From Escherichia phage PGN829.1: a stretch of DNA of 64,000 bases. The first letter of the stretch is position 1; each line of letters opens with the position of its first letter. The translations under genes and the position numbers were made by a program. The stretch lies in the sequence record NC_070871.1. One strand, given 5' to 3'. Below are positions 16,501 through 43,000 of the stretch, one piece after another. The notes beneath the pieces were generated by a model. It was not told the DNA's origin, did no database searches, and saw nothing but the letters and a program-made list of their open reading frames with translations.

Positions 16501-17211
16501 ATGCAGAAATTATCGGAAGTATACCGTGGCTTGGCACTGAGTACCTTGAAGGGTACTGGTGCAATCACGGATGACAGATTAGATATTGAACCAGATAGTA
16601 AGCCAGAGATATTGGCTGCTATTAATGAGGGGCTGGTACGTCTGCATAGTCGTTTCCCCCTTAGAACTAATAGCTGCATTGTGGAGATGAAGGAAGGTCG
16701 TACTGATTACCCTCTTCAATCCAAATATGCTTACTCCAGATTTACTAAGCCTACTCTTGAGATCCAATACCCATACATCATGGATGGGTTCATGAAACCT
16801 TTCCAGGATGATGTTATTAAAATCCTAAATGTGTTTGATAACTCGGGTAATCGCCGTAGACTTAACGACGACTCAGACCCTCATGCAATCTTCACTCCTC
16901 GGCCTGATACTATTCAGTGTATGCGACCTCGACACTTCGAGGCACTTAACGTAACTTATCAAGCTAAGCACCCAGTACTTACGGGTGACGAAGAACAGGA
17001 AGTTGACTTAGCAGATACACTAATGACGGCACTTCATAACTGGGTTGGTTATCGTTACCACACTGGTTTGAATACTCCGGAAGCTAATGCTAAGGCAGCA
17101 GAGTATCTGCAAACATATGAAAGCATCTGTGGTGAGGTTGTTGATTATGACCTAGCTAATGGAAGTATTTCAATTACCGAAACTAAATTTGAACAACGAG
17201 GATGGCGATGA
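16501..17211 (+). CDS. virion-associated protein (hypothetical)
   Basis: Late-operon position between terminase and tailspike. Confidence 0.35.
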   Translation: MQKLSEVYRGLALSTLKGTGAITDDRLDIEPDSKPEILAAINEGLVRLHSRFPLRTNSCIVEMKEGRTDYPLQSKYAYSRFTKPTLEIQYPYIMDGFMKPFQDDVIKILNVFDNSGNRRRLNDDSDPHAIFTPRPDTIQCMRPRHFEALNVTYQAKHPVLTGDEEQEVDLADTLMTALHNWVGYRYHTGLNTPEANAKAAEYLQTYESICGEVVDYDLANGSISITETKFEQRGWR

Positions 17212-20200
17212 ACGCACACAACCCCTTTGATGCAAAACAGGATTGGACCAATCCATACTGTCAAAACAGTTCCAATGACCCAATGGTAGATGCACTACTC
17301 GGTAATGCTTACCATGTGGTTCGTACTGTGTACTGCAACCTGGGTAATCTTAAACTTCTGTATGATTTCCTGAACCAATATGGGATGGTCATCGGCGTAA
17401 ACTCTGAAGAGGAGTTGAAGGCATTATCCACGCAAGTTAAATACTCTCGTATCTATGGTTTCTCTCGTGCAGGTGACCGGCAGGTAACTGACTACTTGTA
17501 CGTAGAGGGTGACCGTACAGGTATTCTACCCAACGATGTTGATGCAACTGGTTCATGGATTACTGTTGCTACTTCTGGTTCCTCTAGTGGTGGTACTTCC
17601 TCTGGAGAAGGTGCTTATATTCCTTGGGTATACAGCAATGGTTCTGCTACTGGTGGGGAAACCACAATCAATGTACCGGATGGTACGGTGGGTGTACCAT
17701 TTATCATTATTAATGGTGATATGCAGTATGTAGGACGTGGTTTTGAGTTTGATGTAGACAGTTTGTCAGTAACTCTGGCTCAGCCTCTAGAAGAAGGTGA
17801 TGAAGTGGTATTCCTTCTGACTGGAGTTCCTGCTGTACCAGATAATCCTAACATTAATGACTGGATTCAGATTAATTGGTTGTACAACAATGGTGCTGCT
17901 GTAGGTGGTGAGCAGGCTATTACTATTCCTTATACCTTCCAGTCTATTCCGGCTGTGTATAAGAACGGTCTTCGTTTGTATAAAGGATTAACTACTGAGT
18001 CTTATACTGCTGACCCGGATAACCAACGTATTTTTCTTACCGAACCACTGACAACCAATGATCGCTTGATAGTACAGATTGGTGGTGAAGCACGAGTATT
18101 AGAAGCAACGGATCGTACCATACAGGAAGTGGCTCGTGCGGCTAATGTAAAAGATTCTGAAGTTATTCTCAGTACTGATACAGTACATTCCTTGAATAAC
18201 AAAAAAGTCATTTATAATCTTGATAATCAGCAGATTTACGTTATTCCAGAATTACCAACTAATGTATATATATCCAGCGTAGCTGGTAATATACTTACAT
18301 ATATTCCGGGTAACATTCAGGTTAAGTTACTAACCAAAAAAGAAACTGACCAAATTACCCTATGGCGGGATGCCGGGGATGTGCGGGGATGGGGCGCTAA
18401 GGGTGACGGAGTAACAGACAGCACTGCTGCATTCTTGAGCGCGTTAGCAAATCACAACAGAGCTTATGTCCCGGATGGTACTTTTTTAGTGGATACGACT
18501 GCTATTGATATCAATCTGGTTCATGGCGAAGGCTATATTCTGACAAATGCTGGCATTCGAATTTCGGTTCAACAATTTCGTCATCAGATGAAAATGGTAC
18601 AGGCCAAGCTGATGGTGCCAAATTTCGGCTTTGACAACGGCACTACAGATACATCAATTTACCCTGGTGCAAGGAACGCTCTACAAGGAATAGCCGTCGT
18701 CGAAGTAAATGGGGTCACAAAACTCTTTATGTCGCAGCGTGTTGCTGGCGGTTCATGGACAGCAACCACACGTTGCAGAATTGTTGAGTGCGAACTGGTT
18801 GTCGATGGCTCTACAGTTCCACTTGTGACGTACTCAGGATTGCTTAACATTGGGCATGGTATTGATCTAACGGCTCGCATCGAGAATGGCGAAGTTTACC
18901 TTTATTCCTCACAGTCTGTTGATCCGGCCTATCCTGACGATAAGGCGGGTAAGGGTTACAGTCGCATTCACTGGCGTGGTTCACTGACCAGTCAGGCGGA
19001 TGTTGAATCATTCGCACTGTGGGGGCAGGTAGGTAGCGGGCATCGTTTTGAGAAATACAACCGCGCCTGCGTTAAAATTTCTGACGATGGGAAATTTCTC
19101 ATCATGGCCTCCTCGCCGGTCAATGCAGGGGCCAAGCGTCAGATCTTCGTCTACGACTTTAAGGAAGTACAGAACGCTTCGGACAAATTGTCTGTGGGAC
19201 CTAAATACATTACCGAGTACTCGGTACCGAGTGAGCAAAACTCCAACGTTCTGCAGGGCATCATGTCGGATGGGCGCACATTGACCATCAACATGGGTGG
19301 AACCGTGACCTTGAGTCCAAACTACATCATAGATGTAGGTTTCGACGGAACCACAGAAGTTCGCCAGGAGTACGAGGGTGCGCTAGACCAGTATGGGCTT
19401 TCTGGAATACTCAATAACCCAACTCAGGGCCATCCATGGCGTTTTGAACCAGAGGGAATCTGCTCATATAAAGGTGGGCGACTTGTCTCCATTGCAGAGG
19501 GCTGGTATGCAACTGCAAAAATAGTTTCATGGGAAGGGGCTAACTGGGCGTGCATTACGCCGAAAGATACAACTGGTGTCCCACCATCGAACGGTTCGTA
19601 CTGGATAAAGACAACAAAGGCCGCGACTGAGGGTGCCTGGAGTTCAGCCGTCAACTATGCAAACACAGCTGATTTCTCTCATGAAGTGAAGACTATCTAC
19701 TACATTGGGCCATCACTTGGTTTGCCACAGGAAAAGCCGCTTACCAGTGGGATTAATAACAGACCTGACCCGTCGCAGGTTCCAACCGGGCAGGGATCTG
19801 GTGCTACATCTATCGGCTTCCAGTGGCGTAATATACTCACAATCAGAGGATGGGCGGCAGCGATAAACCGGTACTTTGATGCGTTACAATACGACAATTC
19901 ATCGAGGTTAAGAATTTATGATTCCCAGGAAGGAGCTGACAATACCCAGTATGTATCAGTACAGGCCCTCTTTAATAGTACAATCAAGGCATTAATCCTC
20001 AGAGCGGGCGGCGCCAGTGTAACTGATAGTGCAGCCATGCGCTTACACAAGCGAGATGATCCCACGTATCCTGGTTATATCGTAGAGAGCACGCGAGCAA
20101 CTGGTGAGTTTTCCAGGGAAACCAATGATTCTGGGGCGACTAGGTTTGCATCTGCTGCTGGCAGTACGCCAGTAACAGCTTGCCGTCCCGATGATGGGAT

Positions 20201-20381
20201 GATGTATGGATTCGAAAAAAGCAGGAATGTAAATCTCTGGGGGATCTATCGCGGGATAGGTTCCCCAGAAGGGGTGATTACGGCACCTCGTGGCTCTCTA
20301 TATGTGGCAGCAACAGGCGCCCCGGCAACGTTATACGTTAAAGAATCTGGCTCAGGAAATACAGGATGGGTGGCAAAATGA
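17202..20381 (+). CDS. tailspike/appendage protein with C-terminal pectate-lyase-like beta-helix depolymerase domain
   Basis: 1059 aa; WGAKGDGVTDSTAAF motif at about residue 390; Gly/Ser-rich linker; C-terminal two thirds looks higher in GC by eye. Confidence 0.6.
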   Translation: MAMNAHNPFDAKQDWTNPYCQNSSNDPMVDALLGNAYHVVRTVYCNLGNLKLLYDFLNQYGMVIGVNSEEELKALSTQVKYSRIYGFSRAGDRQVTDYLYVEGDRTGILPNDVDATGSWITVATSGSSSGGTSSGEGAYIPWVYSNGSATGGETTINVPDGTVGVPFIIINGDMQYVGRGFEFDVDSLSVTLAQPLEEGDEVVFLLTGVPAVPDNPNINDWIQINWLYNNGAAVGGEQAITIPYTFQSIPAVYKNGLRLYKGLTTESYTADPDNQRIFLTEPLTTNDRLIVQIGGEARVLEATDRTIQEVARAANVKDSEVILSTDTVHSLNNKKVIYNLDNQQIYVIPELPTNVYISSVAGNILTYIPGNIQVKLLTKKETDQITLWRDAGDVRGWGAKGDGVTDSTAAFLSALANHNRAYVPDGTFLVDTTAIDINLVHGEGYILTNAGIRISVQQFRHQMKMVQAKLMVPNFGFDNGTTDTSIYPGARNALQGIAVVEVNGVTKLFMSQRVAGGSWTATTRCRIVECELVVDGSTVPLVTYSGLLNIGHGIDLTARIENGEVYLYSSQSVDPAYPDDKAGKGYSRIHWRGSLTSQADVESFALWGQVGSGHRFEKYNRACVKISDDGKFLIMASSPVNAGAKRQIFVYDFKEVQNASDKLSVGPKYITEYSVPSEQNSNVLQGIMSDGRTLTINMGGTVTLSPNYIIDVGFDGTTEVRQEYEGALDQYGLSGILNNPTQGHPWRFEPEGICSYKGGRLVSIAEGWYATAKIVSWEGANWACITPKDTTGVPPSNGSYWIKTTKAATEGAWSSAVNYANTADFSHEVKTIYYIGPSLGLPQEKPLTSGINNRPDPSQVPTGQGSGATSIGFQWRNILTIRGWAAAINRYFDALQYDNSSRLRIYDSQEGADNTQYVSVQALFNSTIKALILRAGGASVTDSAAMRLHKRDDPTYPGYIVESTRATGEFSRETNDSGATRFASAAGSTPVTACRPDDGMMYGFEKSRNVNLWGIYRGIGSPEGVITAPRGSLYVAATGAPATLYVKESGSGNTGWVAK

Positions 20382-20726: not shown

Positions 20727-22613
20727 ATGAACGAATTATTCTCACAAGGTGGTAAAGGCTCTACTGGTATTCTTACCAATAAACAAGCCATTGCCCGTAA
20801 GTTTGGTGTTAAGCAGAATGAAGTAGTCTACTTTTCTGTAGGTGTAGACTTGGGGGGTTACAAAGTCATTTATGACAAGACTACTCAGCGTGCTTACTCT
20901 TTGCCCGTACTCCCGGTAGGAACCACTGCTGTAAGCCTGAATGAACAAGCAATCCTGGTTCATTCAGCAGGTACTGTTGATTTGGGGGAACTTGGGAAAA
21001 GCAGGGGGGAGTATACTACCCTACCTGGCACGTTCTCCACCGGTTCCATAGTAAATACTAAGAATGACATACTCGTTTACAATGATACTGGATACACCTA
21101 CCAGGGTGCACTACCCGTTACTGTAGCTCCTGGATCATCCCCTGTTGGGGATGCTAATTGGGTTGCTATATCCGACGCATACCTGAAAGAGGAACTACTT
21201 AATAAGTATATACACTATGTTACCCCGCAAGTATTTGGTGCTATGGGGGATGGTGTTACTGATGATACTGAAGCCATTCAAGCAGCAATGGATTACTGTC
21301 AACTGAATCGAACTAAGTTGGTGATTCCATCCAAGAAGTACATTATTACTAAACCCTTGTTGTATCGCAATTTAGGCTTTTATAACTATGAAATTGAAGG
21401 ACAAGGTGGTAATGCAATTATTGAATTAACTACCTTAGCTAAGACAGGTATAACTGAGCCAGATGCTTACGGGGTGGATGTTAACGTAAATGCTGCTATT
21501 GTTGTATTAACAGATACTAATCAGAGTAAGTATGCTCGTATTTCAGGTATTCGCTTTACAACTACAGTCAATGCTGACTACGGTATCTATTTTAGTATAA
21601 CGGAGAACAGTTACGTATCAGATTGCCTCTTTGAAGGTTATAAGTTTGGTATATTTGATAAAGGTTCATGGATTCAACGTATATCCCGGTGTATTGCTCG
21701 TAACTGTACGGATACCGGGTTCTATATCCAAGACGGTACTAGTACCTACATAAAAGAATGCTATGTTGATTATGCTAATCGTGGTTACTACTTAGCTAGT
21801 GGCTATAGTTCGATTATTGATTGTGCATGCGACCATACTACCCGCTGGAGCTATGTATTTGGCGGTGGTTCCGGTGATAACGCTACTACAGATACCCGAA
21901 GCATTAGTATGCATAATTGTGGTTCTGAAAATACAGGAACGGGTTCTGCTATCTACATAGATGGTAGGGTTGCATTAGGTATTTCTAATTATCATGCGGG
22001 TAATTACCCTCCATACCAAACAGCCAATACCCCCTATCTTGTAGATGTTTCAAGTAAGGGTTCAGATTCTCAAATTACTATGAGTAATGTGCGATGTGTT
22101 AACTTCTCTTACCTTATTAATGATGCCAGCAGCTCTAATAACTATTTTGACCTTACTAACGTTACCTGTCGTAGTACATTAACTGGTAAATACAGTCTGG
22201 CTTCTGGAACCAGGGTACTAGAAAGAACCAAGGAAGGTGGTGTACGAATCATTACTAATACTGATTTAACTGGTATTGGTATTGTTGCTGGGGATATTGT
22301 GGACTCACTCTCCGATAACACCACTTTATCTGGTTTGCGTAATGGGCAATTCATCTATCGTAAGGGTATATCTATCACCCGCTCTACTGGTTCCGCTGGT
22401 AGTACTGAAGTAACACTACCTATTAACTTACTGGATTATCGTGTAGCCGTAACCTTTAATGGGGGTATTGGTGCATTGCAGAGTATTGCCCCTGTATTTA
22501 GCGTTACTAACCAAACCCCTTCTGGGTTTACGGTTAACTGCGCAAGTTCTCGTGGTGACGAAGCGTGGACTACATTAGGTGCAGATATTATTGTATATGG
22601 CTTGAAGCAGTAA
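20727..22613 (+). CDS. second tailspike with pectate-lyase-like beta-helix domain
   Basis: 628 aa; FGAMGDGVTDDTEAIQAAMDYC motif and beta-helix-like repeats (NCTDTGFYIQDG). Confidence 0.6.
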   Translation: MNELFSQGGKGSTGILTNKQAIARKFGVKQNEVVYFSVGVDLGGYKVIYDKTTQRAYSLPVLPVGTTAVSLNEQAILVHSAGTVDLGELGKSRGEYTTLPGTFSTGSIVNTKNDILVYNDTGYTYQGALPVTVAPGSSPVGDANWVAISDAYLKEELLNKYIHYVTPQVFGAMGDGVTDDTEAIQAAMDYCQLNRTKLVIPSKKYIITKPLLYRNLGFYNYEIEGQGGNAIIELTTLAKTGITEPDAYGVDVNVNAAIVVLTDTNQSKYARISGIRFTTTVNADYGIYFSITENSYVSDCLFEGYKFGIFDKGSWIQRISRCIARNCTDTGFYIQDGTSTYIKECYVDYANRGYYLASGYSSIIDCACDHTTRWSYVFGGGSGDNATTDTRSISMHNCGSENTGTGSAIYIDGRVALGISNYHAGNYPPYQTANTPYLVDVSSKGSDSQITMSNVRCVNFSYLINDASSSNNYFDLTNVTCRSTLTGKYSLASGTRVLERTKEGGVRIITNTDLTGIGIVAGDIVDSLSDNTTLSGLRNGQFIYRKGISITRSTGSAGSTEVTLPINLLDYRVAVTFNGGIGALQSIAPVFSVTNQTPSGFTVNCASSRGDEAWTTLGADIIVYGLKQ

Positions 22614-22618
22614 ATTTA

Positions 22619-22650
22619 GGTAGTGGGGTAAATTTAGTACCCCACTACCA
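22619..22650 (+). terminator. strong hairpin after tailspike gene (terminator-like)
   Basis: 12-bp perfect stem ggtagtggggta/taccccactacc, 7-nt loop; weak T tract. Confidence 0.35.
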
Positions 22651-22871
22651 AACCCATTAGTGTTTGCTGATTCCATTGCTCTAACTGTAAAAATGGTTAG
22701 GGTAACTCTCCCCCATAGGGTATTGAATATATCCAATGATGCCCTTTCTACAAAGCACAGGTTTTGCTCGTCTCTTTGTCTGGATGTATTTCAGCATACT
22801 AAGTATTATCTAAGAGTCATCTTATGATACGACCCCATTGGGGTTCCTAACTTCGTAACTACGGTAATAAT

Positions 22872-23201
22872 ATGAATGAATCGGGTGAACTGCTTCTAGT
22901 CAGACTGGAGGAACGATTGAAGACTCTGTTTGAGAACCAGACAAGGGACAGACAGGACCGTGAGAAACTGGAGGAAACTCTGGGAGAACTACGGGATTCA
23001 ATCAATGACATAGGTAATAGACTAAAAAATGTGGAGGATAGCTTAGCTAAGAATGAACCTACTATTGAAGAGTTCATCACTATTAAGCATAAAGTCGTTG
23101 GTGCTGGAATTTTTGGTAAGTGGGTGTGGGCTGGGGCAGGTGCAATTATTGGTGTATTGGCTGCTGCAAGACGGGAGATATTCGCATGGTTCGTAGGCTA
23201 A
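22872..23201 (+). CDS. coiled-coil protein with C-terminal transmembrane helix (lysis-associated?)
   Basis: Charged coiled-coil region then GAGIFGKWVWAGAGAIIGVLAAA. Confidence 0.35.
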   Translation: MNESGELLLVRLEERLKTLFENQTRDRQDREKLEETLGELRDSINDIGNRLKNVEDSLAKNEPTIEEFITIKHKVVGAGIFGKWVWAGAGAIIGVLAAARREIFAWFVG

Positions 23202-23446
23202 AAAGAAAGATTGAGTTAGTACCTAACTGGAAAAGATGCTGGAAGTGGGCATCCGTTCAGATTAGTACATTTGGTTTAATTTTATTCTCTGCTGTAGATA
23301 TCATCCAACCAATGGTGACAGGATTACCTCGTCACATCCTGGAAGATATTCCCCATGGTTCCAATATTGCAATCGCACTGTTTGCCTTAAACATCATAGG
23401 CAGATTAATACGGTTCCGTCCAAAGGAAAATTCTCATGAAAGCTAA
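23186..23446 (+). CDS. putative holin (two transmembrane domains)
   Basis: Start at internal ATG (MVRRLKRK); two hydrophobic helices; immediately upstream of endolysin. Confidence 0.45.
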   Translation: MVRRLKRKIELVPNWKRCWKWASVQISTFGLILFSAVDIIQPMVTGLPRHILEDIPHGSNIAIALFALNIIGRLIRFRPKENSHES

Positions 23447-24071
23447 ACAGAAACTTGCTGCAAAAGGTGGTGCAGTGGGAGGGGTTGTCGCTGCTATCCT
23501 GGGGGCAGTGTTCTATATGGAAGGGGGTTATGTAAACAATCCTCGTGACCCAGGTGGGGAAACTAATCATGGTATTACCCAATCGGTAGCTAAGTCTCAT
23601 AAGGAGGTTCTGGCTACTGAATATGGTTGGGATGGTTCTATGAAAGGTTTATCTAAGGAGATGGCTGCTGAGATATACATTGATGACTACGTACTTAAGC
23701 CTAACTTCGTAGCCTTCGCTGATATATCTCCTGCTGTAACGCATAAGCTGGTAGATGCTGGTGTTAATACTGGTGTAACCCGTCCGGCTAAGTGGTTGCA
23801 GTTATCCCTTAATGAAATGTCCCGTGATGGCAAAGACTACCCTAAAATACAGGTTGATGGTAAAGTCGGTGCAAGTACTGTTAATGCTTATAAAGCATTA
23901 CAGAAAAAACGAGGCAAAGTTGCAGCATGTCAGGTAATGATTAAGCTGCTTGATGCTAAACAACTAAACCACTATACCTCATTAAACATGCCAGACTTTA
24001 CGTATGGTTGGGTAGCTAACCGAATAGGCAATGTGCCACTGGAGGCATGTAATGAAGATGCTAATCTCTAA
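23436..24071 (+). CDS. endolysin, GH108-type N-acetylmuramidase with PG-binding domain and SAR-like N-terminus
   Basis: GGYVNNPRDPGGETNHGITQ (GH108 signature); N-terminal Gly/Ala-rich weakly hydrophobic segment GGAVGGVVAAILGAVF. Confidence 0.75.
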   Translation: MKAKQKLAAKGGAVGGVVAAILGAVFYMEGGYVNNPRDPGGETNHGITQSVAKSHKEVLATEYGWDGSMKGLSKEMAAEIYIDDYVLKPNFVAFADISPAVTHKLVDAGVNTGVTRPAKWLQLSLNEMSRDGKDYPKIQVDGKVGASTVNAYKALQKKRGKVAACQVMIKLLDAKQLNHYTSLNMPDFTYGWVANRIGNVPLEACNEDANL

Positions 24072-24558
24072 AGGTTGGCCTTATCTTCTGGTGGTGGTCC
24101 TTGGGGCCACCATTTACTTTTGGGGCAATTCCAATGGACAGTCTACTGTTCAAAAGAAATGGGATGCCCAAAAGGTCGAAGACCAAAGGGCAACACAAAA
24201 ATTACAGGACAAATACAATGCTCTCCAAAGAAACCATAGTTATGAAGTCGGGTTACTCACTTCTCGGTTGCAGACGGCTGAGAGTAATTACGCAAGCGAG
24301 CTTGCTCGCGTTAGTAGTGATTATGACAGCCGGATGCAACAGTCTGAAAGACGGGCATCGGTATATAAACGTCAAGCCGAAGCCGGAACCCTTGAGTGCA
24401 GAAGTCTTGCAAGCCATGCAGCCAAACTCGACAGCAGTCTTGAAGAAGGCAGACGTTTGGTTGAAGAACTCCGGGCAACTGTTAGACTCCGTGACAGCCA
24501 ACTAATTGAGTTGGGTAAACAGATTCAGGCTGACCGTAAACTTTTTGAACAGGAATAA
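24052..24558 (+). CDS. i-spanin (Rz-like)
   Basis: N-terminal TM ([17 protein letters not shown]) followed by long coiled-coil region; overlaps endolysin end. Confidence 0.55.
24242..24505 (+). CDS. o-spanin (Rz1-like) embedded in +1 frame of Rz
   Basis: Signal peptide ending in lipobox-like TAGC, short Pro-rich mature peptide (KPKPEP); wholly inside the Rz ORF. Confidence 0.5.
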   Translation: MKSGYSLLGCRRLRVITQASLLALVVIMTAGCNSLKDGHRYINVKPKPEPLSAEVLQAMQPNSTAVLKKADVWLKNSGQLLDSVTAN

Positions 24559-24560
24559 CT

Positions 24561-26831
24561 ATGGAACACCAAGACACTTTTAAGCCTTTACCAGACCCGG
24601 CTCAATCAGAGAAGTTAACGGACTGGAAGAAAGAACCAAGTATCCAATTACTGAAAGGTGATCTGGAATCAGCTAAACCTGCTCACGATGCAATCATGGC
24701 TCAGATTCGTGAGTGGAATGACTTGATGGAAGTTAAGGGTAAGGCTAAACCACCCAAAGTTAAAGGACGTTCGCAAGTTCAACCTAGACTGGTTCGCCGT
24801 CAGGCAGAGTGGCGTTATGCACCATTGTCTGAACCATTCCTCTCGTCTAATAAACTCTTTAAAGTAACTCCTGTTACTTTTGAAGATGAATTAGCTGCAC
24901 GTCAGAATGAATTAGTTCTTAACTACCAATTCCGTACTCAGCTTAATAAAGTAAAACTGGTAGATGATTACGTGCATAGTGTCGTAGATGACGGTACTGG
25001 TATTGCTCGTATCGGTTGGGAACGTAAGACTGTTAAGATTAAGACAGAAACCCCAGTCTTCCAGTTGTATCCAATTGAGAACCAGGAACAAGCAGATGTT
25101 CTTCAACAGGCTTTGCAGCTTCAGGCAGAGAATCCCCGTGAGTATGATGAAACAATGCCGGAAGATATTAAGGAAGCTGTTAACTACTTCAATGAAACTG
25201 GAGAAGCTACATATGCAATCCAGACCGGTGTTACTGAGGTAGAAGTAGAGAAAGCACTGGTTAACAGACCTACCGTTGAAATGCTTAACCCCAATAACGT
25301 AGTTATTGATCCAAGCTGTAATGGTGATTTGGATAAGGCTTTGTATGCAGTCATTTCGTTTGAGACATGCAAAGCAGACCTCATGAAGAACAAAGACCGT
25401 TATCACAACCTGGATAAGATTGACTGGGAAAGTTCCAGTCCTATGACTGACCCAGACCATGAAAGTAAAACTCCTGGTGACTTCCAGTTTAAGGATGCAC
25501 TTCGCAAGAAAGTAATTGCTTATGAGTATTGGGGATTCTACGACATTAACGATGATGGTTCACTGGAACCAATTGTTGCTACCTGGATTGGCTCTACTCT
25601 TATTCGTATGGAGAAGAATCCATTCCCTGATGGTAAGTTACCGTTGGTAGTTGTTCCCTATATGCCTCGTAAACGTGAACTCTATGGTGAAGCTGATGCT
25701 GAATTGCTAGGAGATAACCAAGCAATTCTTGGTGCAACCATGCGTGGGATGATTGACCTGTTGGGCCGAAGTGCAAATGGTCAACGTGGTTATCCTAAAG
25801 GGATGTTAGATACCCTGAACCGTCGTCGATACGATGATGGACAAGACTACGAATATAACCCAATGCAGGGCAATCCTAGTCAGGCCATTATGGAACACAA
25901 GTTCCCTGAGTTACCCCAGTCGGCAATAGTAATGACTCAGATGCAAAACCAGGAAGCAGAAGCACTAACGGGTGTTAAAGCATTCTCGGGTGGTGTAACT
26001 GGTGAAGCTTACGGAGATGTAGCTGCTGGTATTCGTGGTGTACTAGATGCAGCATCCAAACGTGAGATGGCAATCCTTCGTCGATTAGCTAAGGGTATGG
26101 CAGACATTGGTACTAAGATTTGTGCAATGAATGCTGTGTTCTTATCTGAGAAAGAAGTAGTACGTATTACTAACGAGCAGTATGTAGAAATTAACCGAGA
26201 AGACCTTAAGGGTAACTTCGACATTGAGGTTGATATTAATACTGCTGAGATTGATAACCAGAAATCCCAGGACTTGAGCTTCATGGTTCAAACGTTAGGT
26301 AATACGGTTGACCAAACTATTACGCTATCTCTTGTAGCTAAGATTGCAGAACTTAAACGTATGCCAGACCTTGCTCATGAGTTACGTACCTGGAAACCAC
26401 AGCCAGACCCTATGGAAGAACAGCTTAAGCAATTGGCAATTCAGAAAGCACAGCTTGAGAATGAAGAGTTGCAAAGTAAGATTGCACTCAATATGGCTAA
26501 GGCTAAAGAGGCTGCTTCTAGTGGTGACCTTAAAGACCTGGATTATCTGGAACAGGAATCTGGTACTAAACATGCTCGTGACATGGAAAAACAAAAAGCA
26601 CAATCTCAAGGAAACCAGAACCTTCAGATAACTAAGGCGTTGACAACACCTACTAAAGAAGGTGAAACTACCCCCAACATATCTGCTGCTGTTGGATATA
26701 ACGCTTTGACTAATGGGAACTCTATACCAGAACGTGACTTAGCTGCACAACAAGACCCAGCTTATTCACTTAGTTCCCAATTCTATGACCCTAGCCAAGA
26801 CCCAGCATCGGCTCTTGGCATGAACTTGTAA
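24561..26831 (+). CDS. portal protein
   Basis: 756 aa, position between lysis cassette and capsid genes as in N4 (gp59). Confidence 0.6.
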
Positions 26832-28445: not shown

Positions 28446-29648
28446 ATGTTAAACTATAACGCTCCAATTGACGGTCAGAAATCTAGCATTGATGGTGCTG
28501 GTTCCGATCAGATGAATACCTTTTACTGGCTGAAGAAAGCTATTATTCAGTCTCGTAAAGACCAGTACTTCATGCCACTGGCTAACACCATTAACATGCC
28601 GAAGAACTACGGTAAGACTGTTAAGGTGTATGAGTACGTTCCTCTGCTCGACGATAAGAACATTAACGACCAGGGTATTGATGCTAATGGTGCTACCATC
28701 GTTAATGGTAACCTGTATGGTTCTTCTAAAGACGTTGGTAACATCACTTCCAAACTGCCTCTGCTGACAGAGAACGGTGGTCGTGTTAACCGTGTAGGCT
28801 TTACCCGTCTGTCTCGTGAAGGCTCCATCCATAAGTTCGGTTTCTTCTACGAATTTACCCAAGAGTCCCTGGACTTTGATTCCGATGACCAACTGAAAGA
28901 ACACCTGTCCCGTGAACTGATGAATGGTGCTGTACAGTTGACTGAAGCTGTTCTCCAGAAAGACCTGCTGGCTGCTGCTGGTACTGTACTGTATGCTGGT
29001 GCTGCTACCTCTGATGCTACCATCACTGGTGAAGGTTCTACCCCGTCTGTAGTTTCTTATAAGAACCTGATGCGTCTTGACCAGATTCTTACTGAGAACC
29101 GTACCCCGACTCAGACCACTATCATCACTGGTTCTAAACTGACCGATACCAAAGTACTTGGTGGTACTCGTGTAATGTACGTTGGTTCTGAACTGGTTCC
29201 AGAACTGAAAGCGATGAAAGACCTGTTCGGTAATAAAGCATTCATCGAAATTCAGCATTATGCTGATGCCGGTACTCTGATGAATGGTGAAGTTGGTTGT
29301 ATCGACAAGTTCCGTATTATCCAGGTTCCTGAGATGCTGCATTGGGCAGGTGCTGGTGCTCAGGCTACTTCTAACCCGGGCTACCGTTCTTCTATGGTTG
29401 ATGGTCAGGAACACTACGACGTATTCCCGATGCTGGTAGTTGGTGATGACTCCTTCTCTACCATTGGCTTCCAGACTGATGGTAAGTCTGTTAAGTTCTC
29501 CATCATGACTAAGATGCCTGGTAAAGAAACTGCTGACCGTAATGACCCGTATGGTGAAACTGGTTTCAGTTCTATCAAGTGGTACTACGGTATTCTGGTT
29601 AAACGTCCAGAACGTCTGGCTCTGATTAAGACTGTTGCTCCTCTGTAA
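28446..29648 (+). CDS. major capsid protein
   Basis: 400 aa, strongly biased codon usage typical of highly expressed genes, followed by hairpin; matches N4 gp56 size and position. Confidence 0.65.
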
Positions 29649-29666
29649 TAGTCCGAAATAAAACAA

Positions 29667-29690
29667 GGGGGACATTAGTCCCCCTCTTAA
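29667..29690 (+). terminator. hairpin/terminator after capsid gene
   Basis: 7-bp stem gggggac/gtccccc, loop atta, short T-containing tail. Confidence 0.5.
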
Positions 29691-29715
29691 TAAAACTAAA
29701 TGAACCACAGGAAAT

Positions 29716-30357
29716 ATGAACATGAGCATTAACGATAAACCGACCGCTGACGTAGAAGTAAACGTACAGGGCAACGAAGATACCGTTAACGATATTGCAA
29801 TGCCTAGTGAACTTGAAGTTCTTAAGCAACGTGCAACGTTGATGAATATCAAGTTCTCTAACAACATCTCCGTTGAAAAACTTCGTGAAAAAATTGAAGC
29901 AGCACAAGTAAAAGATGAACCAGTAGTAGAAGAAGCTGCTGTTAATCCGCTTGGTGAAAAACAGGAAGCTGGTGTTAAGAAGATGACTCTTGGTCAAAAG
30001 ATTCGTGCAGAACAGACTCGACTGATTCGTGTACGTATCCAGAACCTTGACCCTAAGAAGAAAGACCTACCAGGTGAGATTATCACCGTAGCTAACGAAT
30101 ATATGGGTACTGTGCGTAAGTTTGTTCCATTCGGTGAAGTAACCGACAATGGTTATCACATTCCGTATTGTATCTACGAGTTCCTTAAAGAGCGTAAGTT
30201 CATCAACATTACGACCCGTAAAGGTAAGAATGGCTTACCGGATATTCGTGCAACTGAAGCACGAGAGTTCTCCATTGAGGTACTGCCTCCGTTGACTGAA
30301 GCTGAATTAGCTCAACTAGCTCAGGCACAGATTGCTGCTGGTAGCCTGAACGATTAA
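29716..30357 (+). CDS. virion protein (hypothetical)
   Basis: Late-operon ORF. Confidence 0.4.
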   Translation: MNMSINDKPTADVEVNVQGNEDTVNDIAMPSELEVLKQRATLMNIKFSNNISVEKLREKIEAAQVKDEPVVEEAAVNPLGEKQEAGVKKMTLGQKIRAEQTRLIRVRIQNLDPKKKDLPGEIITVANEYMGTVRKFVPFGEVTDNGYHIPYCIYEFLKERKFINITTRKGKNGLPDIRATEAREFSIEVLPPLTEAELAQLAQAQIAAGSLND

Positions 30358-37029: not shown

Positions 37030-40000
37030 TTGAACAGGAAACATGCTATGTCAACATTTGACCGTCTGGCAGGTTTCGCAGACAGCATCACTAATGCTAA
37101 GCAAGTCGATGTCTCTACTGCAACCTCTCAGAAGCAAGCTGCACAAGGGCAAAGCCCTTTCCAATTAACCCCAGAGAATGCTTACAATCTCCAAACTGGT
37201 CGTGTAGGTAATCTTGGAATTGGTGCATTCGAACCAGGTTCACTTCAGGCAGATTTCACTCAAGCCTCCCCATTAGAAATCCTTAATAAATACGGTAATG
37301 AGCAAGGTCTACAGATTATTAATAGCCGAGCTAATGCTGCTGATGTTGTACGTCAGGACTTATCTAAACAACGTACTAACGCGGAAGCATTTGGTGATAC
37401 TCTTTCTGGTGTTGGTCTTGGTGTTGCTAATACCCTTGGGGGCATTGCTGCTCTTGGTACAGGTCTGGTCAATGATAATGCCGGAGCATCCATTGCTTCC
37501 GGGATGGATTGGCTGAATGAAGGTGTACACAATTTACAGTCTGATGCACTGAATGCTACCCGTAAGGTTGTTCAGAATCAGAACCAGATTTCTGCACAAA
37601 AGAACCAGAAGCTCTATGAAGAAGATATTAAAAATGGGGAGAGCAGTTTGGTTGCCTCCCTGTCTCGCATTGGTCGTGATGCTTTTGATTCTGTTGCTAA
37701 TACACTTGATAATGGTATGGCTGCTACCGATGGGCTGAGTGAAGGTGTTGGTTCTCTCTTTACTGGTGGTCCATTAATTCGTGGTGTATCCGCACTCGGT
37801 AAAGTAATGGTAGGTGGAGATAAAGCCGTTAAAGGTATTACCCTAGCTGCTGAGTTAGGTTCACGTCCTGCACAGATTGCATTGTCTGCTGGTCGTGTTG
37901 CTGCACCTGCTATTGCAATTGGTGGTATGGAAGCTGGTGGTGCATACCAGCAGACTGCTTCTGAAATCATGAAGATGTCCCATCAAGAATTGGCAAGTAA
38001 GTCTCCTGTTTATCAACAACATATCGCTGATGGTTTATCTCCTGATGAAGCACGTCGTCAAACTGCATCTGAAACGGGTATCATTGCTGCTAGCTTAACT
38101 GCTCCAGTTGCTGCTGCTACTGGTCCACTGGTATCTAAGTTTGAACTTAACCCACTTAAGGTAGGTTCACTGGCTGGTGCTGGCTCTAACATGCTTCGTG
38201 AAACCGTAGAAGAAGGTATTCAGTCTGGTACAAGTCAGTTTGCACAGAACAAGGCAATTCAGGGTAATGTAGATGCTAAGCGTGATCTGCTTAAAGGTGT
38301 CGGTGAGCAAGCAGGTCTTGGTGCACTCTATGGCTTCGGTAGTGCTGGTGTTTCTCAGGCTCCTGGTGCAACTGTTAAAGCTGTTGGTGCTTCTGCTGGC
38401 CCTGCTCTTCGTACTACCCTGGCTGGTGCTTCTCTGGTTGGTAGTGCATTAGCAAAAGCTGCTTCTCCTATTACTAACATCCTGGTTCAACGTGGTGAAG
38501 AAGTTGCTAAGCGTAATGAACAAGCATCCCCTGTATCTGATGCCACTGTTAATGCTGCTGCACAAGAAGCTACTGCTCAGGCAGAACAAGCACAAGCAAC
38601 TGTACAGGAAGCAGTAGATGCAATGGATATTTCTCCTGAAGAGAAAGCTGCTGCTACTCAGTATGCTGCTGACTTAACTCAGGCAATGAAGTTTGACCCA
38701 GTAGAGTTAGAGCAAGCTAATCCAGCAATCCGTGAAGCCGTTTCTGGTTCCACTAACCGTGTTGAAGCTATTCAGAAGATGGCTGACCTGGTTAATACTG
38801 CCGAAGACCCTAACGTTCAAATGGAAGCTGCAATCCAGATGTATGACAATATCATGTCTATGGATAGCTTCATTAACCGTGACCCAGGTGCTCTGGCTAA
38901 CCTGGAACAAGGTTCCCCTGCTGCTGCAATCGTTGACCAGTTCTCTGGTCTGATGGCTAACGTTCAGAATACACCTAAAGTACTTCGTGCATTCCGTGCT
39001 ATTCATTCTATGATTCAGGAACAGGCTGAAGCAGGTAAACTGAAAGCTACTGAAGAAGCCAACCAAGCCCAAGCAAACAATATTGCTATGGCTGCTGATA
39101 TGTCTCCAGAAGTACTGGATGCTGATTCAGTGAACATGATTCTGAAACATGCAAGTGAAGGTAAGATTACACTGGGGAATCATCAGCGTGCTGCCCTGCA
39201 ATCGGCTGCTGCCTTGTTACAGGGTGCACGAGAATTTGATGCTAAAGCAGAAGAACTAGGCTTACGTCCTCAAGACATTGTTAGTAAACAGATTAAAACC
39301 GACGAGTCTCGTTCTAATGAAGGTCAGTACTCTGCGTTGCAACATGCTAAACGCATTCGTTCTGCGTACAACTCTGGTAATTTCGATTTGGCTTCCGCTT
39401 ACCTCGACGACTTTATGAAGTTCGCCCAGCACATGCAGAATAAGGTCGGAGCGTTGAATGAGCATCTGATTTCTGGGAATGCGGATAAGAATAAGTCTGT
39501 CCATTATCAGGCTCTTACTCCCTCCCGTGAATGGGTACGTAGTCGTACTGGTCTTGGTGTCAATCCGTATGATACCAAGTCGGTTAAGTTTGCCCAGCAA
39601 GTAGGACTGGAGGCCAAAACCGTAGCTGATATTGCTAACGCACTTGCTACGGCTTACCCGGAGCTTAATGTTTCTCATGTGAAGGTTACTCCATTAGATT
39701 CACGTCTGGACAAGCCTGCTGCCCAGGTAGTTAAAGAGTTCCGTCAAGGTGGTCTTGATGCCACTCAGTCTCAACAGACCAATGAACCAGTGAATCAGGT
39801 TGATGAAACTCCTGCACCAGCGCAAGAGACTACTACTACTGTACAGCCTAAAGCTAAACCAGTGGTAGAAAATAAGACTGTTCCTGTTAAAGAGGCTAGT
39901 TCAAAAGCAGAAGAAGTCTCTACTACTAAGTCTGAAACAGTAGATGCTACCCTCACCAATGAGGATACCACTCAAAAAGTAGCTGAAACTAAAACGGAAA

Positions 40001-43000
40001 TGGAAACAGTTTTCCCTGTCTATAACAATGACAAGACACCGAACCAGTTCCTGAAATCATTTACCCTGCCGGAAGAACCTAAGTCTCGCACCATTGGTTC
40101 TGAATCCCCTTTGACTGATATTAAGCAAGCACTGTCTTCTACTGCACGCTTTGAAGCATTCACTCAAAAAGAAAATAACGCTCTCACAAGTGATGTGATT
40201 AAGCGTTATCAGGACTTAATGGGCTTTGGTGAAACTCTGAAGACTACTCTGTCTGATCGTCTGGCTAAGTTTCTTGCTAATAAGAACGTTGGTAAACGCT
40301 TTGCAGAAGGCACAGAGGCTAACCGTTGGGTAGGTGGTAAGTTACTTAATATCGTAGAGAAAGACGGAGACACCTTTAAGTTCAATGACCAGTTGTTAGA
40401 GACTGCTGTACTTGCTGGTCTGCAATGGCGACTGACTGCTACACAGAATGCTGCTGTTAAAGACATGAAAGATGTAGCTGCTATTACTGGTGTAGAGGCA
40501 TCTCTGTTACCTGAAGGTATTCTGGCTGACTTCGAGAATGCTCAGACTCTGGTTGAAGCTACTAACTCACTGGCTCAAAAGATTGAATCTTACTGGGGTT
40601 TGAATCGCAATCCAAATGCACCACTGGGTTATACCAAAGGTATCCCAATGGCAATGGCTACGGAGATTCTGTCTTCTTTCATTGAGATGGGTGAAGTTAA
40701 AGAATCTATGCTGGATGTGTCTGAGTTTGACCCAGACTCTAATAAGACCGTCGGTCTGTATACCATTGAGAAGCTGGATGATAACGATGCCATTAACAAG
40801 TTCCCTACTGCTATCGAGGAAGCTGTTCTCGTAGAACCAGAAGAGAAAATGTACTTTGGTGATGATATTCCTTCCGTGGCTCAAACTCAGTTACGTAACC
40901 CTGCTGTTAAGAATACCCCAGAGCAGAAAGCTGCTCTTAAAGCAGAACAGGCTACCGAGTTCCGTGTACACATGCCGATGGTTAACTTCTATGAAGCATT
41001 AGGTCGTGACAACATTCTGGAACTGATGGGTGCTGGTACTCTTAATCCTGAACTGCTGAACGTGAACACTGCTAAGTCACTGGAGGGTAAAAACCTGTCA
41101 GTGTCTATGGCATATGATTCCCTGTTCGGTGTAATCAACCAGTTACAGGAACAGGAGAATGGTCTGGATACGCCTATTCACTATGGTTACAACATGACCC
41201 GTGTAGGTCGTATGCAGATGTTAGGTAAGAACAACCCACAATCCAGTAAACTGGTTCGTGAAGCAATTCTGCCAACCTTCTCTACTATTGACTTGAGTAA
41301 TGAAAATAGCCAAACATTCTCTGACTTCCAGCTAGGACTGGCTCAGGCATTGGGTATCAAGGTACATAACATGTCCCGTGAAGCTATGTCTGAAAAGTTG
41401 ACCAAGGCTCTGGAAGGTAATCTGAAACCTGCCGTTGATATGGTGGTTGAGTTTGATAAGTCTGGTCACTTACCAGCTAATGCAGTGGATATTCTGAAAA
41501 CATCTCTGGGCGGCGATAAATCATTCGTAGCTCTTATGGCTCTTATGGAATATGCCCGTTACCTGAACAGTGATGACCGTGCCAACTTTAATACCCCTCT
41601 GTACGTTGAAGCCGATGGTGTAACTAACGGACCAATCAACGCAATGGTATTAATGACCGGTGGTAAGTTCACTTCAGACTGGGTTAAGAATACTGCTAAA
41701 GGTGGCTTGTTCTTCGGTAAAGCTGGTAAGACTATGAATGAACATCGTTCACAGGATGACAGTGTTGACCTGTATGAAGCATCTACCAATGGTCTGCAAC
41801 AAGCACTTAATGAGTTACGTACTACTTACCGTAACAACGTTCCGGTTATGAACCAAATGAATCATCTTCAGAAGTTAATGGACCTGTTTATTAAAGACTT
41901 TAACCTGAATGAAGACGGTACTCTGGACCTGAAACGTGGTATCGCTAAAAACCCACTGACTATTACCATCTATGGTTCTGGTGCTCGTGGTATTGCTGGC
42001 AAGATGGTTAGTGCAATTACTGACACCATCTATGAACGCTTCAGTGATGTTCTGCAAGCTCGTGCTGCTGACCCTAGCATTTCCCCAGCTATGGCAATGT
42101 TTGGTAAGGAGGCTGCGTCTGAGGCTGATGCTCAGGCTATGCTGGATACTTTCCTTACTTCTATGGAAGCACTGACTGGTAATGTTCCAGTTATGCGTAA
42201 AGGTGAACTGTCTATTCAACAGGTAGAAGGTGCTCTGACTGGTAAGTTAGACCCTCAGAAGTTTACCGTATCAGGAAATGCTCTGAAGAACTTACAAGAG
42301 AACATGCTTCACCTGTTCGTTGAACCAATGCGTACTGGTATCCGTAATACTGTTGGTGAAGGTCTGATGCATTCTACTGAGAACTTGCAGAAGGCTACCC
42401 AGATTCAGTCACTGGTATTGCAGGATATGTTCCAGCAACGTGTCCAGGAGAAGCTAGCAGAAAAAGAAAAAGACCCAACATGGAAAAAGGGTGATTTCTT
42501 AACACAGAAAGAACTGAATGAAATCCAGGAATCATTATCCCCACTAGCTCCAATGATTGAGACTGGTTCACAGACTTTCTACATTGCTGGCAGTGAAAAT
42601 ACTGATGTTGCTAACCAAGTTCTGGCTACCAACTTAGATGATCGTATGCGTGTGCCAATGAGCATCTATGCTCCTTCACAGGCAGGTGTTGCAGGTATTC
42701 CTTTTATGACCATTGGTACTGGCGATGGCATGATGATGCAGACCCTTTCTACTATGAAAGGTGCTCCGAAGAATACCCTGAAAATCTTTGATGGTATGAA
42801 CATTGGTATCAACAACATCACTGATGCAAGTCGTAAAGCTAATGAGGCTGTATACACTTCCTGGCAGGGTAACCCTATCAAGAATGTCTACGACTCCTTC
42901 TCTAAGTTCATGAAGAATGTAGACTTCAGCAAACTGTCTGATGAAACCAAACAGGCTATCGCTAAATCTGCTCTGGAATATGACCAGCGTGAAGGTGCTA

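Follow-up and report, generated by a model that had tools for sequence, protein, structure and literature searches.

Positions 22872-24558 of the window (the whole 64,000-nt stretch of Escherichia phage PGN829.1 analysed here, NC_070871.1) very probably constitute a late-expressed, five-gene lysis cassette of the N4 type, as carried by the genus Gamaleyavirus (G7C/Bp4-like, N4-like Schitoviridae). The genes are all on the + strand and are orthologs, in order, of gp63, gp62, gp61 and gp60/gp60a. The initial annotation had proposed a lysis cassette at 23186-24558 with a SAR (signal-anchor-release) type GH108 endolysin and an embedded Rz/Rz1-type spanin pair, a reading that is supported by the orthology to N4 gp61 and gp60a. 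We found the four elements it described on the + strand where it had placed them, but the cassette starts one gene earlier, at 22872.

The lysis cassette of Escherichia phage N4 has been described previously (Stojkovic & Rothman-Denes 2007; Awuah et al., bioRxiv 10.1101/2025.11.12.688109), and the functional N4 data used here come from the latter, a preprint. The two phages agree in the order of the five genes, in their strand relative to the portal gene and in their overlapping layout; the overlaps are 16, 11 and 20 nt in PGN829.1 versus 16, 14 and 20 nt in N4. Amino acid identity to N4 is 68.9% for gp63 (over 106 aa), 63.4% for gp62, 69.8% for gp61, 56.5% for gp60 and 56.3% for gp60a. The two cassettes also share an 18-residue uncharged SAR segment with 50% Gly+Ala, the EGGY motif, the Receiver motif and a mature o-spanin of 56 aa. 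Genes, domains, motifs, orthology and conservation were established directly for the PGN829.1 cassette. The individual PGN829.1 proteins would have the activities of their N4 counterparts, from which these activities are transferred.

Across the whole cassette, DNA identity to annotated Gamaleyavirus phages (U1G, Bp4, St11Ph5 and ECBP1) is 95-98%, and dozens of Gamaleyavirus genomes sequenced to date carry a near-identical cassette. The cassette is not new; it is already known as an ordinary, catalogued lysis cluster of N4-like coliphages of this genus. The St11Ph5 record annotates gp63, gp62 (putative holin), gp61 (N-acetylmuramidase) and gp60.2 and gp60.1 (Rz/Rz1) at the same positions. In the relevant entries of a spanin catalogue, the pairs of Bp4, EC1-UPM, ECBP1, pSb-1 and G7C are listed as an 'N4' family (Kongari 2018, PMC6139136). 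The rows for Bp4 and EC1-UPM describe an embedded pair with a 168-aa i-spanin and an 87-aa o-spanin that has an MTAG or TTAG lipobox and a 56-aa mature part. The entries for ECBP1, pSb-1 and G7C, as used here, comprise coordinates and lengths only, with an i-spanin of 168 aa in pSb-1 and ECBP1 and of 164 aa in G7C. PGN829.1 and its Gamaleyavirus relatives (U1G, Bp4, St11Ph5, ECBP1, pSb-1, G7C and EC1-UPM) in effect carry the same cassette, with few amino acid differences, for instance LLGC versus LPGC in the o-spanin signal peptide and Gly/His versus Glu/His after its Cys.

Consensus scanning of 22400-24800 yielded no promoter-like site on the + strand, with counts about equal to those of shuffled sequences. 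The late promoters of N4 differ from the sigma-70 consensus. Candidate terminators in the same interval all fall inside coding sequence, and neither tRNAs nor Rfam families were found in the window.

The first gene (22872..23201, + strand) encodes a 109-aa ortholog of N4 gp63 that matches PHROG 5211 at 3e-50, a family with the function label 'unknown'. The protein has a long cytoplasmic helical N-domain, the Receiver motif PTIEEFITIKHK and a single C-terminal TMD (GAGIFGKWVWAGAGAIIGVLAAA), with a KD15 maximum of 1.99 at residues 85-99. The Receiver motif is identical to that of N4 and contains the positions of N4 T65 and T71, and conservation of the adjoining TMD region across loci is 87-100%. 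N4 gp63 is the pinholin that triggers lysis. It can stand in for the S21 pinholin but not for S105, and it kills at once; rapid-lysis mutations map to it, and its deletion is tolerated only with SAR-domain suppressors (Awuah et al., bioRxiv 10.1101/2025.11.12.688109). By analogy, the 22872-23201 protein is a gp63-type pinholin predicted to make small lethal holes that release SAR endolysins, not soluble ones. Its N-domain is only ~50% identical to the N4 N-domain and lacks the internal Met13 and Met17 of N4, and the two phages may therefore regulate lysis differently, for example in lysis inhibition.

At least three alleles exist of the N-domain of this gene (22872 to about 23060), with only 46-58% identity between them. 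Recombination has swapped them between phages with 97-100% identical endolysins, and one allele is 100% identical between phages whose endolysins share only 77% identity. This allele exchange is the one point not spelled out in the literature consulted here. We consider it unlikely that the alleles differ in specificity as variants of a sensor of lysis timing and that selection maintains their diversity; this interpretation presupposes that the gp63 tail is the receiver of the signal for lysis inhibition or superinfection that has been proposed for N4.

The second gene (23186..23446, + strand) encodes an 86-aa ortholog of N4 gp62 with two TMDs in an N-in/C-in topology, and lies between the pinholin and endolysin genes, as in N4. 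A Shine-Dalgarno sequence (SD; GGGAG) is located at 23172-23176, and all loci compared keep the ATG together with the gggag before it. The protein matches PF25612/DUF7940 (52.4 bits; cut-off 27) and PHROG 1356, labelled 'holin' (2.7e-30), and has hydrophobic segments near residues 22-47 and 61-75. Initially described as a two-TM holin-like ORF, it does have two hydrophobic segments and can acceptably be called holin-like, but as an ortholog of gp62 it is probably not the primary holin. N4 gp62 is non-essential, kills only slowly and has been given the name 'lysis regulator' (Awuah et al., bioRxiv 10.1101/2025.11.12.688109).

It is very unlikely that the two-TMD protein is instead the true primary holin (class II or pinholin) and that the 109-aa protein upstream is unrelated to lysis, being for instance a virion or tail protein. 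Database labels point that way: in addition to the PHROG 1356 label, most GenBank records give the 23186-23446 gene as 'holin' or 'putative holin', and the upstream gene is 'hypothetical' or, in several records, 'tail length tape-measure protein T'. N4 gp62 is moreover lethal after depolarisation and eventually lets lambda R out. However, deletion of N4 gp62 leaves plasmid-driven lysis unchanged and the gene is dispensable in the phage, whereas it is gp63 that complements S21, kills at once and bears rapid-lysis mutations. The PGN829.1 ortholog of gp63 keeps the Receiver motif and TMD almost unchanged, and a 109-aa protein with a C-terminal TMD, whose gene runs 16 nt into the following lysis gene, is no tape measure. 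We thus retain the gp63 ortholog as the probable primary hole-former.

We also considered a longer gp62 isoform starting at GTG 23120 (108 aa, a dual start like that of lambda S), but its conservation is not supported. Most loci keep the 22 additional codons free of stops, yet a TAG interrupts them in two (L012 and L013), and they overlap the highly conserved region that encodes the gp63 TMD.

The third gene (23436..24071, + strand; SD AAGGA at 23423-23427) encodes the putative SAR endolysin, a 211-aa protein with a GH108 N-acetylmuramidase domain and a C-terminal PG_binding_3 domain. PF05838 (Glyco_hydro_108) matches residues 24-113 at 6.2e-20 and 72 bits, above the gathering cut-off of 21.2, which confirms the GH108 signature reported initially, and PF09374 (PG_binding_3) matches residues 117-196 with 32 bits (cut-off 24.6). 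Relatives of the endolysin are present in 533 phage records. Among solved structures it matches Sen1395 (PDB 6V3Z, 7e-27) and TtsA (6V40, 5e-20), and our assignment of the GH108 fold relies on these sequence matches; a single-sequence AlphaFold2 prediction had a mean pLDDT of 33.9 and a pTM of 0.27, too low to be used. Glu29 (in EGGY) and Thr43 are conserved with the TtsA triad Glu14/Asp19/Thr28, and the position of the triad Asp is occupied by Asn34, as it likewise is by Asn in N4 gp61 and Sen1395, both active enzymes. The score against NCBIfam NF040573 (holin-associated N-acetylmuramidase, the TtsA equivalog) is 57.3 bits, below the cut-off of 240. The endolysin is a relative of this TtsA-type family and not an equivalog.

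The SAR segment GGAVGGVVAAILGAVFYM corresponds to endolysin residues 11-28 (23466..23519, + strand), which are all uncharged and half Gly or Ala; the Gly/Ala-rich N-terminal segment that prompted the SAR proposal is thus present. It is preceded by MKAKQKLAAK, with four Lys among the first 10 residues, and directly followed by the codon for the catalytic Glu29 (GAA, 23520-23522). The segment is conserved in the 15 related loci compared at the gp61 N-terminus. It is less hydrophobic than the SAR helix of N4 gp61 (KD19 maximum 1.78 versus 2.17), and Kyte-Doolittle values do not distinguish the SAR helix (KD15 2.23) from the true TMDs of the cassette (1.87-2.25). In the comparison with N4 gp61 that the initial annotation had suggested, the two proteins are 70% identical, have SAR segments of equal length and both keep EGGY, and N4 gp61 is experimentally a SAR endolysin. 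It complements endolysin defects with both holin types, lyses cells slowly and gradually when no holin is present, and gives rapid lysis once a single acidic substitution is placed in its SAR segment (Awuah et al., bioRxiv 10.1101/2025.11.12.688109). The site of one rapid-lysis substitution, G12E, is Gly15 in PGN829.1. Carried over from N4 gp61, the PGN829.1 enzyme would be exported by Sec, held in a tethered inactive form and released uncleaved upon depolarisation.

It is extremely unlikely that the hydrophobic segment is a cleavable Sec signal peptide or a permanent anchor and not a SAR domain. A positive N-region followed by a hydrophobic core is a signal peptide pattern too, and the KD19 maximum exceeds the classical TM threshold of 1.6. 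However, no Ala-X-Ala-type site follows the core, and the catalytic Glu29 is within one residue of it. Residues 19-28 are also homologous to the start of the structured part in soluble GH108 enzymes, aligning with residues 4-13 of TtsA, and their loss by cleavage would leave the fold incomplete. The content of 50% Gly+Ala is as in SAR domains, and the N4 ortholog acts in the SAR manner, working with a pinholin and giving gradual lysis when no holin is present.

Two kinds of known system resemble this SAR endolysin in different respects. Like TtsA and Sen1395 of Salmonella type 10 secretion systems, it is a two-domain GH108 plus PG_binding_3 protein in which the EGGY Glu and the Thr are kept. 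Unlike them, it has an 18-residue N-terminal extension. TtsA and Sen1395 have no SAR segment: only ~13 residues lie ahead of their catalytic Glu, and these open with a helix that is charged and amphipathic (DEIFAAILSRE), whereas the equivalent helix of the phage endolysin is uncharged (AAILGAVFYME). The phage 21 S21/R21 and P1 Lyz systems, reportedly the paradigms of SAR lysis, follow the working principle proposed here, with a Sec-inserted, tethered and inactive endolysin that is freed when a small-hole holin depolarises the membrane, and the predicted activation by refolding of the N-terminal helix into the enzyme resembles that of R21. In contrast, the GH108 muramidase fold is unrelated to the T4-lysozyme-like GH24 fold of R21 and P1 Lyz, and the gp63-like pinholin has one C-terminal TMD where S21 has two TMDs. 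The SAR segment contains no Cys, which excludes by sequence a disulfide caging of the P1 type.

The fourth gene (24052..24558, + strand) encodes a 168-aa Rz-like i-spanin orthologous to N4 gp60, which matches PHROG 6197 'Rz-like spanin' at 4.5e-75. As the initial annotation had it, an Rz-like protein follows the endolysin: a type-II membrane protein with a TMD at residues about 9-25 (KD15 1.87 at 11-25) and then a helical periplasmic domain with one Cys. The most likely start is ATG 24052, and not the first ATG at 24031, because GGAGG at 24041-24045 precedes it with a 6-nt spacer. This start and its SD agree with the ECBP1 entry of the spanin catalogue (Kongari 2018, PMC6139136), and the gene overlaps that of the endolysin by 20 nt.

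Within the i-spanin gene, wholly contained in its +1 frame (frame 2 versus frame 1), is the gene for the o-spanin, an Rz1-like ortholog of N4 gp60a on the + strand. The embedded lipoprotein gene proposed initially is thus present and runs from ATG 24218, or alternatively ATG 24242, to 24505. ATG 24218 is preceded by AGGA at 24206-24209 and is found in all Gamaleyavirus loci, and ATG 24242 is missing in two loci (L019 and L011). The lipobox codons M-T-A-G-C occupy 24323-24337, with the Cys codon (TGC) at 24335-24337. This places the Cys at position 40 or, from the downstream start, 32, after a long signal peptide of 39 or 31 residues. The lipobox is MTAG-C in PGN829.1 versus IVG-C in N4, and PGN829.1 lacks the internal Met that gives N4 a short o-spanin signal peptide. 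The mature protein of 56 aa has the same length as that of N4 gp60a.

The initial annotation called the TAGC lipobox non-ideal. The sequence was read correctly and, with Thr at -3, it does fail the strict pattern [LVI][ASTVI][GAS]C, but, being kept in the clade, it gives no reason to doubt the gene. Thr(-3) is invariant across the Gamaleyavirus loci examined, which marks it as a trait of the clade and not a defect. The signal fits the broader PROSITE PS51257-type rule, with a Lys within the first 7 residues, and the authors of the spanin catalogue demonstrated that another deviant lipobox, AWAC, works (Kongari 2018, PMC6139136). Two other readings of this N-terminus were rejected. The upstream LLGC (Cys10 or Cys18) has no hydrophobic core before it to make it the true lipobox, and is LPGC or LLDY in relatives; a Tat signal (CRRLRV) is not supported either, as its RR is KR in L012 and absent in N4.

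Conservation of the frame, the Cys and the mature peptide is what we take as decisive evidence for a real o-spanin gene. All three are kept in 20/20 loci, down to 37% i-spanin identity, and conservation extends to a hydrophobic core, to the motif NVKPxPEPL and to the C-terminus, which hardly varies. When the codons of the i-spanin gene were shuffled (n=5000), a stop-free +1 stretch of 146 codons came up in 16 cases and one of at least 95 codons in 11%, so the length of the ORF alone is weak evidence. Third-position divergence of the i-spanin gene from N4 is 0.35 inside the overlap versus 0.58 outside, a test of double coding that is confounded because codon positions 1 and 2 are also less diverged there. 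That the ORF is an unexpressed chance frame, with the outer membrane disrupted by the i-spanin alone or by another gene, agrees with these shuffles and with the indecisive double-coding test, as well as with the failed strict lipobox and the many GenBank records that omit the ORF, yet it has almost no chance of being right given a frame that is open in 20/20 loci with NVKPxPEPL, Cys and C-terminus kept even at the lowest i-spanin identity, a mature length equal to that of gp60a, and N4 proteins that work as a spanin pair.

Indeed, N4 gp60 and gp60a complement lambda RzRz1 (Awuah et al., bioRxiv 10.1101/2025.11.12.688109). By the example of this pair, the PGN829.1 o-spanin would be lipidated by Lgt/LspA, sorted to the outer membrane and complexed with the i-spanin, and would take part in outer-membrane disruption. 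Lipoproteins are sorted according to the residue at +2, Asp as opposed to other residues. The o-spanin has Asn and not Asp at this position, which is compatible with Lol sorting to the outer membrane.

Taken together, the five proteins could act as follows. Sec would insert the endolysin as a type-II (N-in) membrane protein by means of its weakly hydrophobic, Gly/Ala-rich SAR helix. The tethered enzyme is presumably inactive, since Glu29 ends the SAR helix, whose C-terminal half is the first helix of soluble GH108 enzymes; this helix would be missing from the GH108 fold until release. Meanwhile, the gp63-like pinholin would build up in the inner membrane until small holes, formed at a set time, collapse the membrane potential. 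Depolarisation would then free the SAR helix from the bilayer, allowing the muramidase to refold and degrade peptidoglycan around the whole cell. The gp62-like two-TMD protein may tune the timing or act as a slow back-up hole former. Finally, the i-spanin in the inner membrane and the Lol-sorted lipoprotein o-spanin in the outer membrane would span the periplasm by their C-termini and, after loss of the wall, disrupt or fuse the outer membrane.

As a discovery the cassette carries little weight, the spanins being catalogued and every N4 ortholog characterised. The conserved Thr(-3) is a further naturally occurring case of a lipobox that departs from the consensus in a lipoprotein that looks functional. 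The value of the analysis lies in annotation: in these phages the gp63 ortholog, the real hole-former by analogy with N4, is widely mislabelled as 'tail length tape-measure protein T' or 'hypothetical', while the label 'holin' is given to the two-TMD gp62 ortholog and the embedded o-spanin often has no annotation at all.

The lysis genes of PGN829.1 form a tight run of short overlapping genes on the plus strand, with a tail-fibre gene (20727-22613) on one side and the portal gene (24561-26831) on the other. In order, they are a gp63-like gene (22872-23201; 109 aa) whose product has a long charged helical N-terminal part and a single C-terminal hydrophobic segment, a gp62-like gene (23186-23446; 86 aa) encoding two hydrophobic segments, the endolysin gene (23436-24071; 211 aa) and an i-spanin gene (24052-24558; 168 aa) that encodes an N-terminal transmembrane segment (TMD) followed by a helical domain. 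The o-spanin ORF is embedded in the +1 frame of the i-spanin gene; this frame is free of stops between 24065 and the one at 24505 and offers two ATGs, at 24218 and 24242. Neighbouring genes share 16, 11 and 20 nt in turn, the portal ATG lies 2 nt past the final cassette stop, and Shine-Dalgarno-like sites precede three of the starts (GGGAG, 23172-23176; AAGGA, 23423-23427; GGAGG, 24041-24045). The initial annotation placed a lysis cassette at 23186-24558, which fits the second to fifth genes exactly, and every element it described was confirmed. Its main points stand, but the cassette starts one gene earlier, with the gp63 ortholog.

The cassette is a real but ordinary, already described feature. 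At the DNA level it shares 97.8% identity with Escherichia phage U1G and ~95% with Bp4, St11Ph5, ECBP1 and pSb-1 (all Gamaleyavirus, Schitoviridae), and the surrounding 24-kb stretch has 94-95% identity to the same phages across 80-87% of its length. In St11Ph5 the same five genes are annotated as gp63, gp62 (putative holin), gp61 (N-acetylmuramidase) and gp60.2 plus gp60.1 (Rz/Rz1). Phage N4 has one-for-one orthologs in the same order (gp63-gp62-gp61-gp60/gp60a; 68.9, 63.4, 69.8, 56.5 and 56.3% identity), among them gp61, with which comparison of the endolysin had been suggested. The N4 N-acetylmuramidase was called a SAR (signal-anchor-release) endolysin already in a 2015 genome announcement (PMC4319500). 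Kongari et al. 2018 assigned the spanin pairs of Bp4 and EC1-UPM to an 'N4' family, as embedded pairs with a 168-aa i-spanin, an 87-aa o-spanin, an MTAG or TTAG lipobox and a 56-aa mature part, and also catalogued, with coordinates and lengths, embedded pairs in ECBP1, pSb-1, G7C and PhAPEC5/7 (PMC6139136).

All functional assignments in the cassette are carried over from N4, some of them from a preprint (Awuah et al., bioRxiv 10.1101/2025.11.12.688109). There, the N4 pinholin is gp63, a C-terminally anchored protein of 110 aa that complements S21, not S105, and kills immediately; rapid-lysis mutations (T65I, T71A and others) fall in the 'Receiver' region adjoining its TMD. N4 gp62 has two TMDs, is dispensable and only slowly lethal, and is termed a 'lysis regulator'; gp61 on its own gives slow lysis, and gp60/gp60a complement lambda RzRz1. 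The PGN829.1 gp63 ortholog carries a Receiver motif, PTIEEFITIKHK, and a TMD essentially identical to those of N4. By orthology, this protein would be the primary hole-former, and not the two-TMD ORF originally described as holin-like. By analogy with N4, and for the SAR helix partly on our own reasoning, Sec would insert the endolysin N-in via this helix, the pinholin would depolarise the membrane at the programmed time, the helix would then exit the bilayer and render the enzyme active, and the spanins would finish off the outer membrane.

No stop interrupts the gp62-like frame in the 22 codons before its ATG (23120-23185), and a start at the GTG at 23120 would yield a protein of 108 aa. N4 gp62 has the same extension, but from an ATG, and a dual-start possibility has been described for it (bioRxiv 10.1101/2025.11.12.688109). 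Because the extension is shut in two of the compared loci (L012 and L013) by a TAG four codons upstream, and overlaps the region coding for the conserved gp63 TMD, its openness may simply be inherited.

The GH108 signature of the endolysin is borne out by matches to Pfam Glyco_hydro_108 (6.2e-20, 72 bits; cut-off 21.2), to PHROG 315 'endolysin' and to the solved GH108 muramidases Sen1395 (6V3Z, 7e-27) and TtsA (6V40, 5e-20); PG_binding_3 also matches (32 bits; cut-off 24.6). The catalytic triad of TtsA is Glu14/Asp19/Thr28 (PMC6996933). Counterparts of the Glu (Glu29, in EGGY) and Thr (Thr43) are kept, and the Asp position is occupied by Asn34, as in both N4 gp61 and the active enzyme Sen1395. 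A single-sequence AlphaFold model of the endolysin had a mean pLDDT of 33.9, too low to be usable.

The endolysin begins with MKAKQKLAAK, followed by GGAVGGVVAAILGAVFYM and EGGY; that is, four Lys, 18 uncharged residues and then the catalytic Glu. Half of the 18 residues are Gly/Ala, in agreement with the weakly hydrophobic, Gly/Ala-rich start first noted. The Kyte-Doolittle 19-residue maximum of 1.78 is slightly above the classical 1.6 threshold and below the 2.17 of N4 gp61, and such values do not tell the SAR helix apart from the cassette's true TMDs. Gly15 aligns with N4 Gly12, and rapid-lysis mutations in gp61 make a residue of the SAR segment acidic (G12E; bioRxiv 10.1101/2025.11.12.688109). 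Alignments to TtsA and Sen1395 begin at residues 19-23. Residues 19-28 (AAILGAVFYM) are matched to TtsA residues 4-13 (DEIFAAILSR), where the structured part of the soluble enzyme begins; in its C-terminal half, the SAR helix would thus be a hydrophobised version of the first GH108 helix. The catalytic Glu is located at the end of the SAR helix; with this helix in the membrane the active site could not be complete, and after release the helix could fold back. Activation would thus resemble the R21 type, unlike the disulfide caging of the P1 Lyz type, which we discount because the segment lacks Cys.

Downstream, PHROG 6197 'Rz-like spanin' (4.5e-75) supports the Rz-like i-spanin. For the o-spanin, ORF length by itself is not compelling: when the codons of the i-spanin gene were shuffled 5000 times, a +1 open stretch matching or exceeding the 146 codons observed arose in 16 shuffles, and one of at least 95 codons in 11%. 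A divergence-by-codon-position test was confounded. Conservation decides in favour of the predicted embedded gene. Across the 20 loci compared (the window, two GenBank Gamaleyaviruses, 16 IMG/VR contigs and N4), the +1 frame is always open and always encodes the hydrophobic core, the lipobox Cys, an NVKPxPEPL motif and an almost invariant C-terminus, even in the locus (L020) where i-spanin identity is only 37%; the Rz1-like lipoprotein initially proposed for this frame is thereby upheld.

Its lipobox is indeed non-ideal, as Thr at -3 breaks the strict [LVI][ASTVI][GAS]C consensus; the wider PROSITE-type rule accommodates it. The residues preceding the Cys are I[M/T]TAG in all Gamaleyavirus loci, IVG in N4 and LLG, LVG or LAG in the remaining loci. 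Since Thr(-3) occurs in every Gamaleyavirus locus compared, it is a fixed clade trait and no sign of decay; another deviant lipobox, AWAC, has been shown to be functional (Kongari et al. 2018, PMC6139136). ATG 24242 is absent from two relatives (ECBP1, L019, and locus L011), while ATG 24218, with AGGA ahead at 24206-24209, is kept in all Gamaleyavirus loci, so the upstream start is the conserved one. Both starts yield an identical mature lipoprotein of 56 residues, whose Asn at +2 is compatible with outer-membrane sorting. Apart from the lipidated Cys, the mature o-spanin is Cys-free, and the i-spanin has a single Cys in its periplasmic part, in agreement with the catalogue rows.

Many records (U1G, PBM-2/3, UE-M6, Bp4, ZQ2 and others) label the gp63 ortholog 'tail length tape-measure protein T' or 'tail needle protein', and the embedded o-spanin is missing from most GenBank records; both look like annotation errors passed on from record to record. 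The PBM-3 record (L002) splits the portal gene into two CDS, 'portal protein' (3262-3531, 270 nt) and 'portal (connector) protein' (3524 onward). The window has one intact 756-aa ORF (24561-26831), and a frameshift or sequencing error in the PBM-3 record is likely.

Just upstream of the cassette, the closest relatives show no conservation of the tail-fibre/tailspike genes (20727-22613 and 17202-20381); only 80-87% of the 24-kb stretch is covered by megablast, and relatives have an endosialidase or K5 lyase at the tail-fibre position. This divergence is the receptor-binding module swapping usual in G7C-like phages. Further downstream, a 472-aa ORF (28449-29867, minus strand) lies antisense and codon-aligned to a 400-aa plus-strand gene (28446-29648), probably the major capsid protein by position. 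Among the 401 codons of the sense gene, TTA occurs once and CTA and TCA never (mean for the three in other late genes, ~11.5 per 400 codons), and CTG makes up 27 of its 34 Leu codons; the rarity of TTA, CTA and TCA leaves the antisense frame without stops, and the 472-aa ORF is a codon-bias artefact. A virion-encapsidated RNA polymerase is a hallmark of N4-like phages, and a 3456-aa plus-strand ORF (37030-47400) fits this candidate role by size. No tRNA genes or Rfam families were found in the whole 64,000-nt window.

The gp63-like protein has Leu (22872-22925) at the positions of N4 gp63 Met13 and Met17, discussed as an alternative start (bioRxiv 10.1101/2025.11.12.688109); therefore no shorter internal-ATG isoform is possible in PGN829.1. 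Its cytoplasmic N-domain (22872-23060) occurs as at least three alleles, with mutual identity of 46-58%, in phages whose endolysins are 97-100% identical (loci L004-L018). Two loci (L008 and L015) share a 100% identical allele with endolysins only 77% identical, and the Receiver motif and TMD keep 87-100% identity at every locus. These N-domain alleles are the sole item for the cassette that goes beyond the literature consulted. Their mosaic pattern indicates module exchange and suggests, from the sequences compared, recombinational exchange of the regulatory tail in gp63-like proteins.
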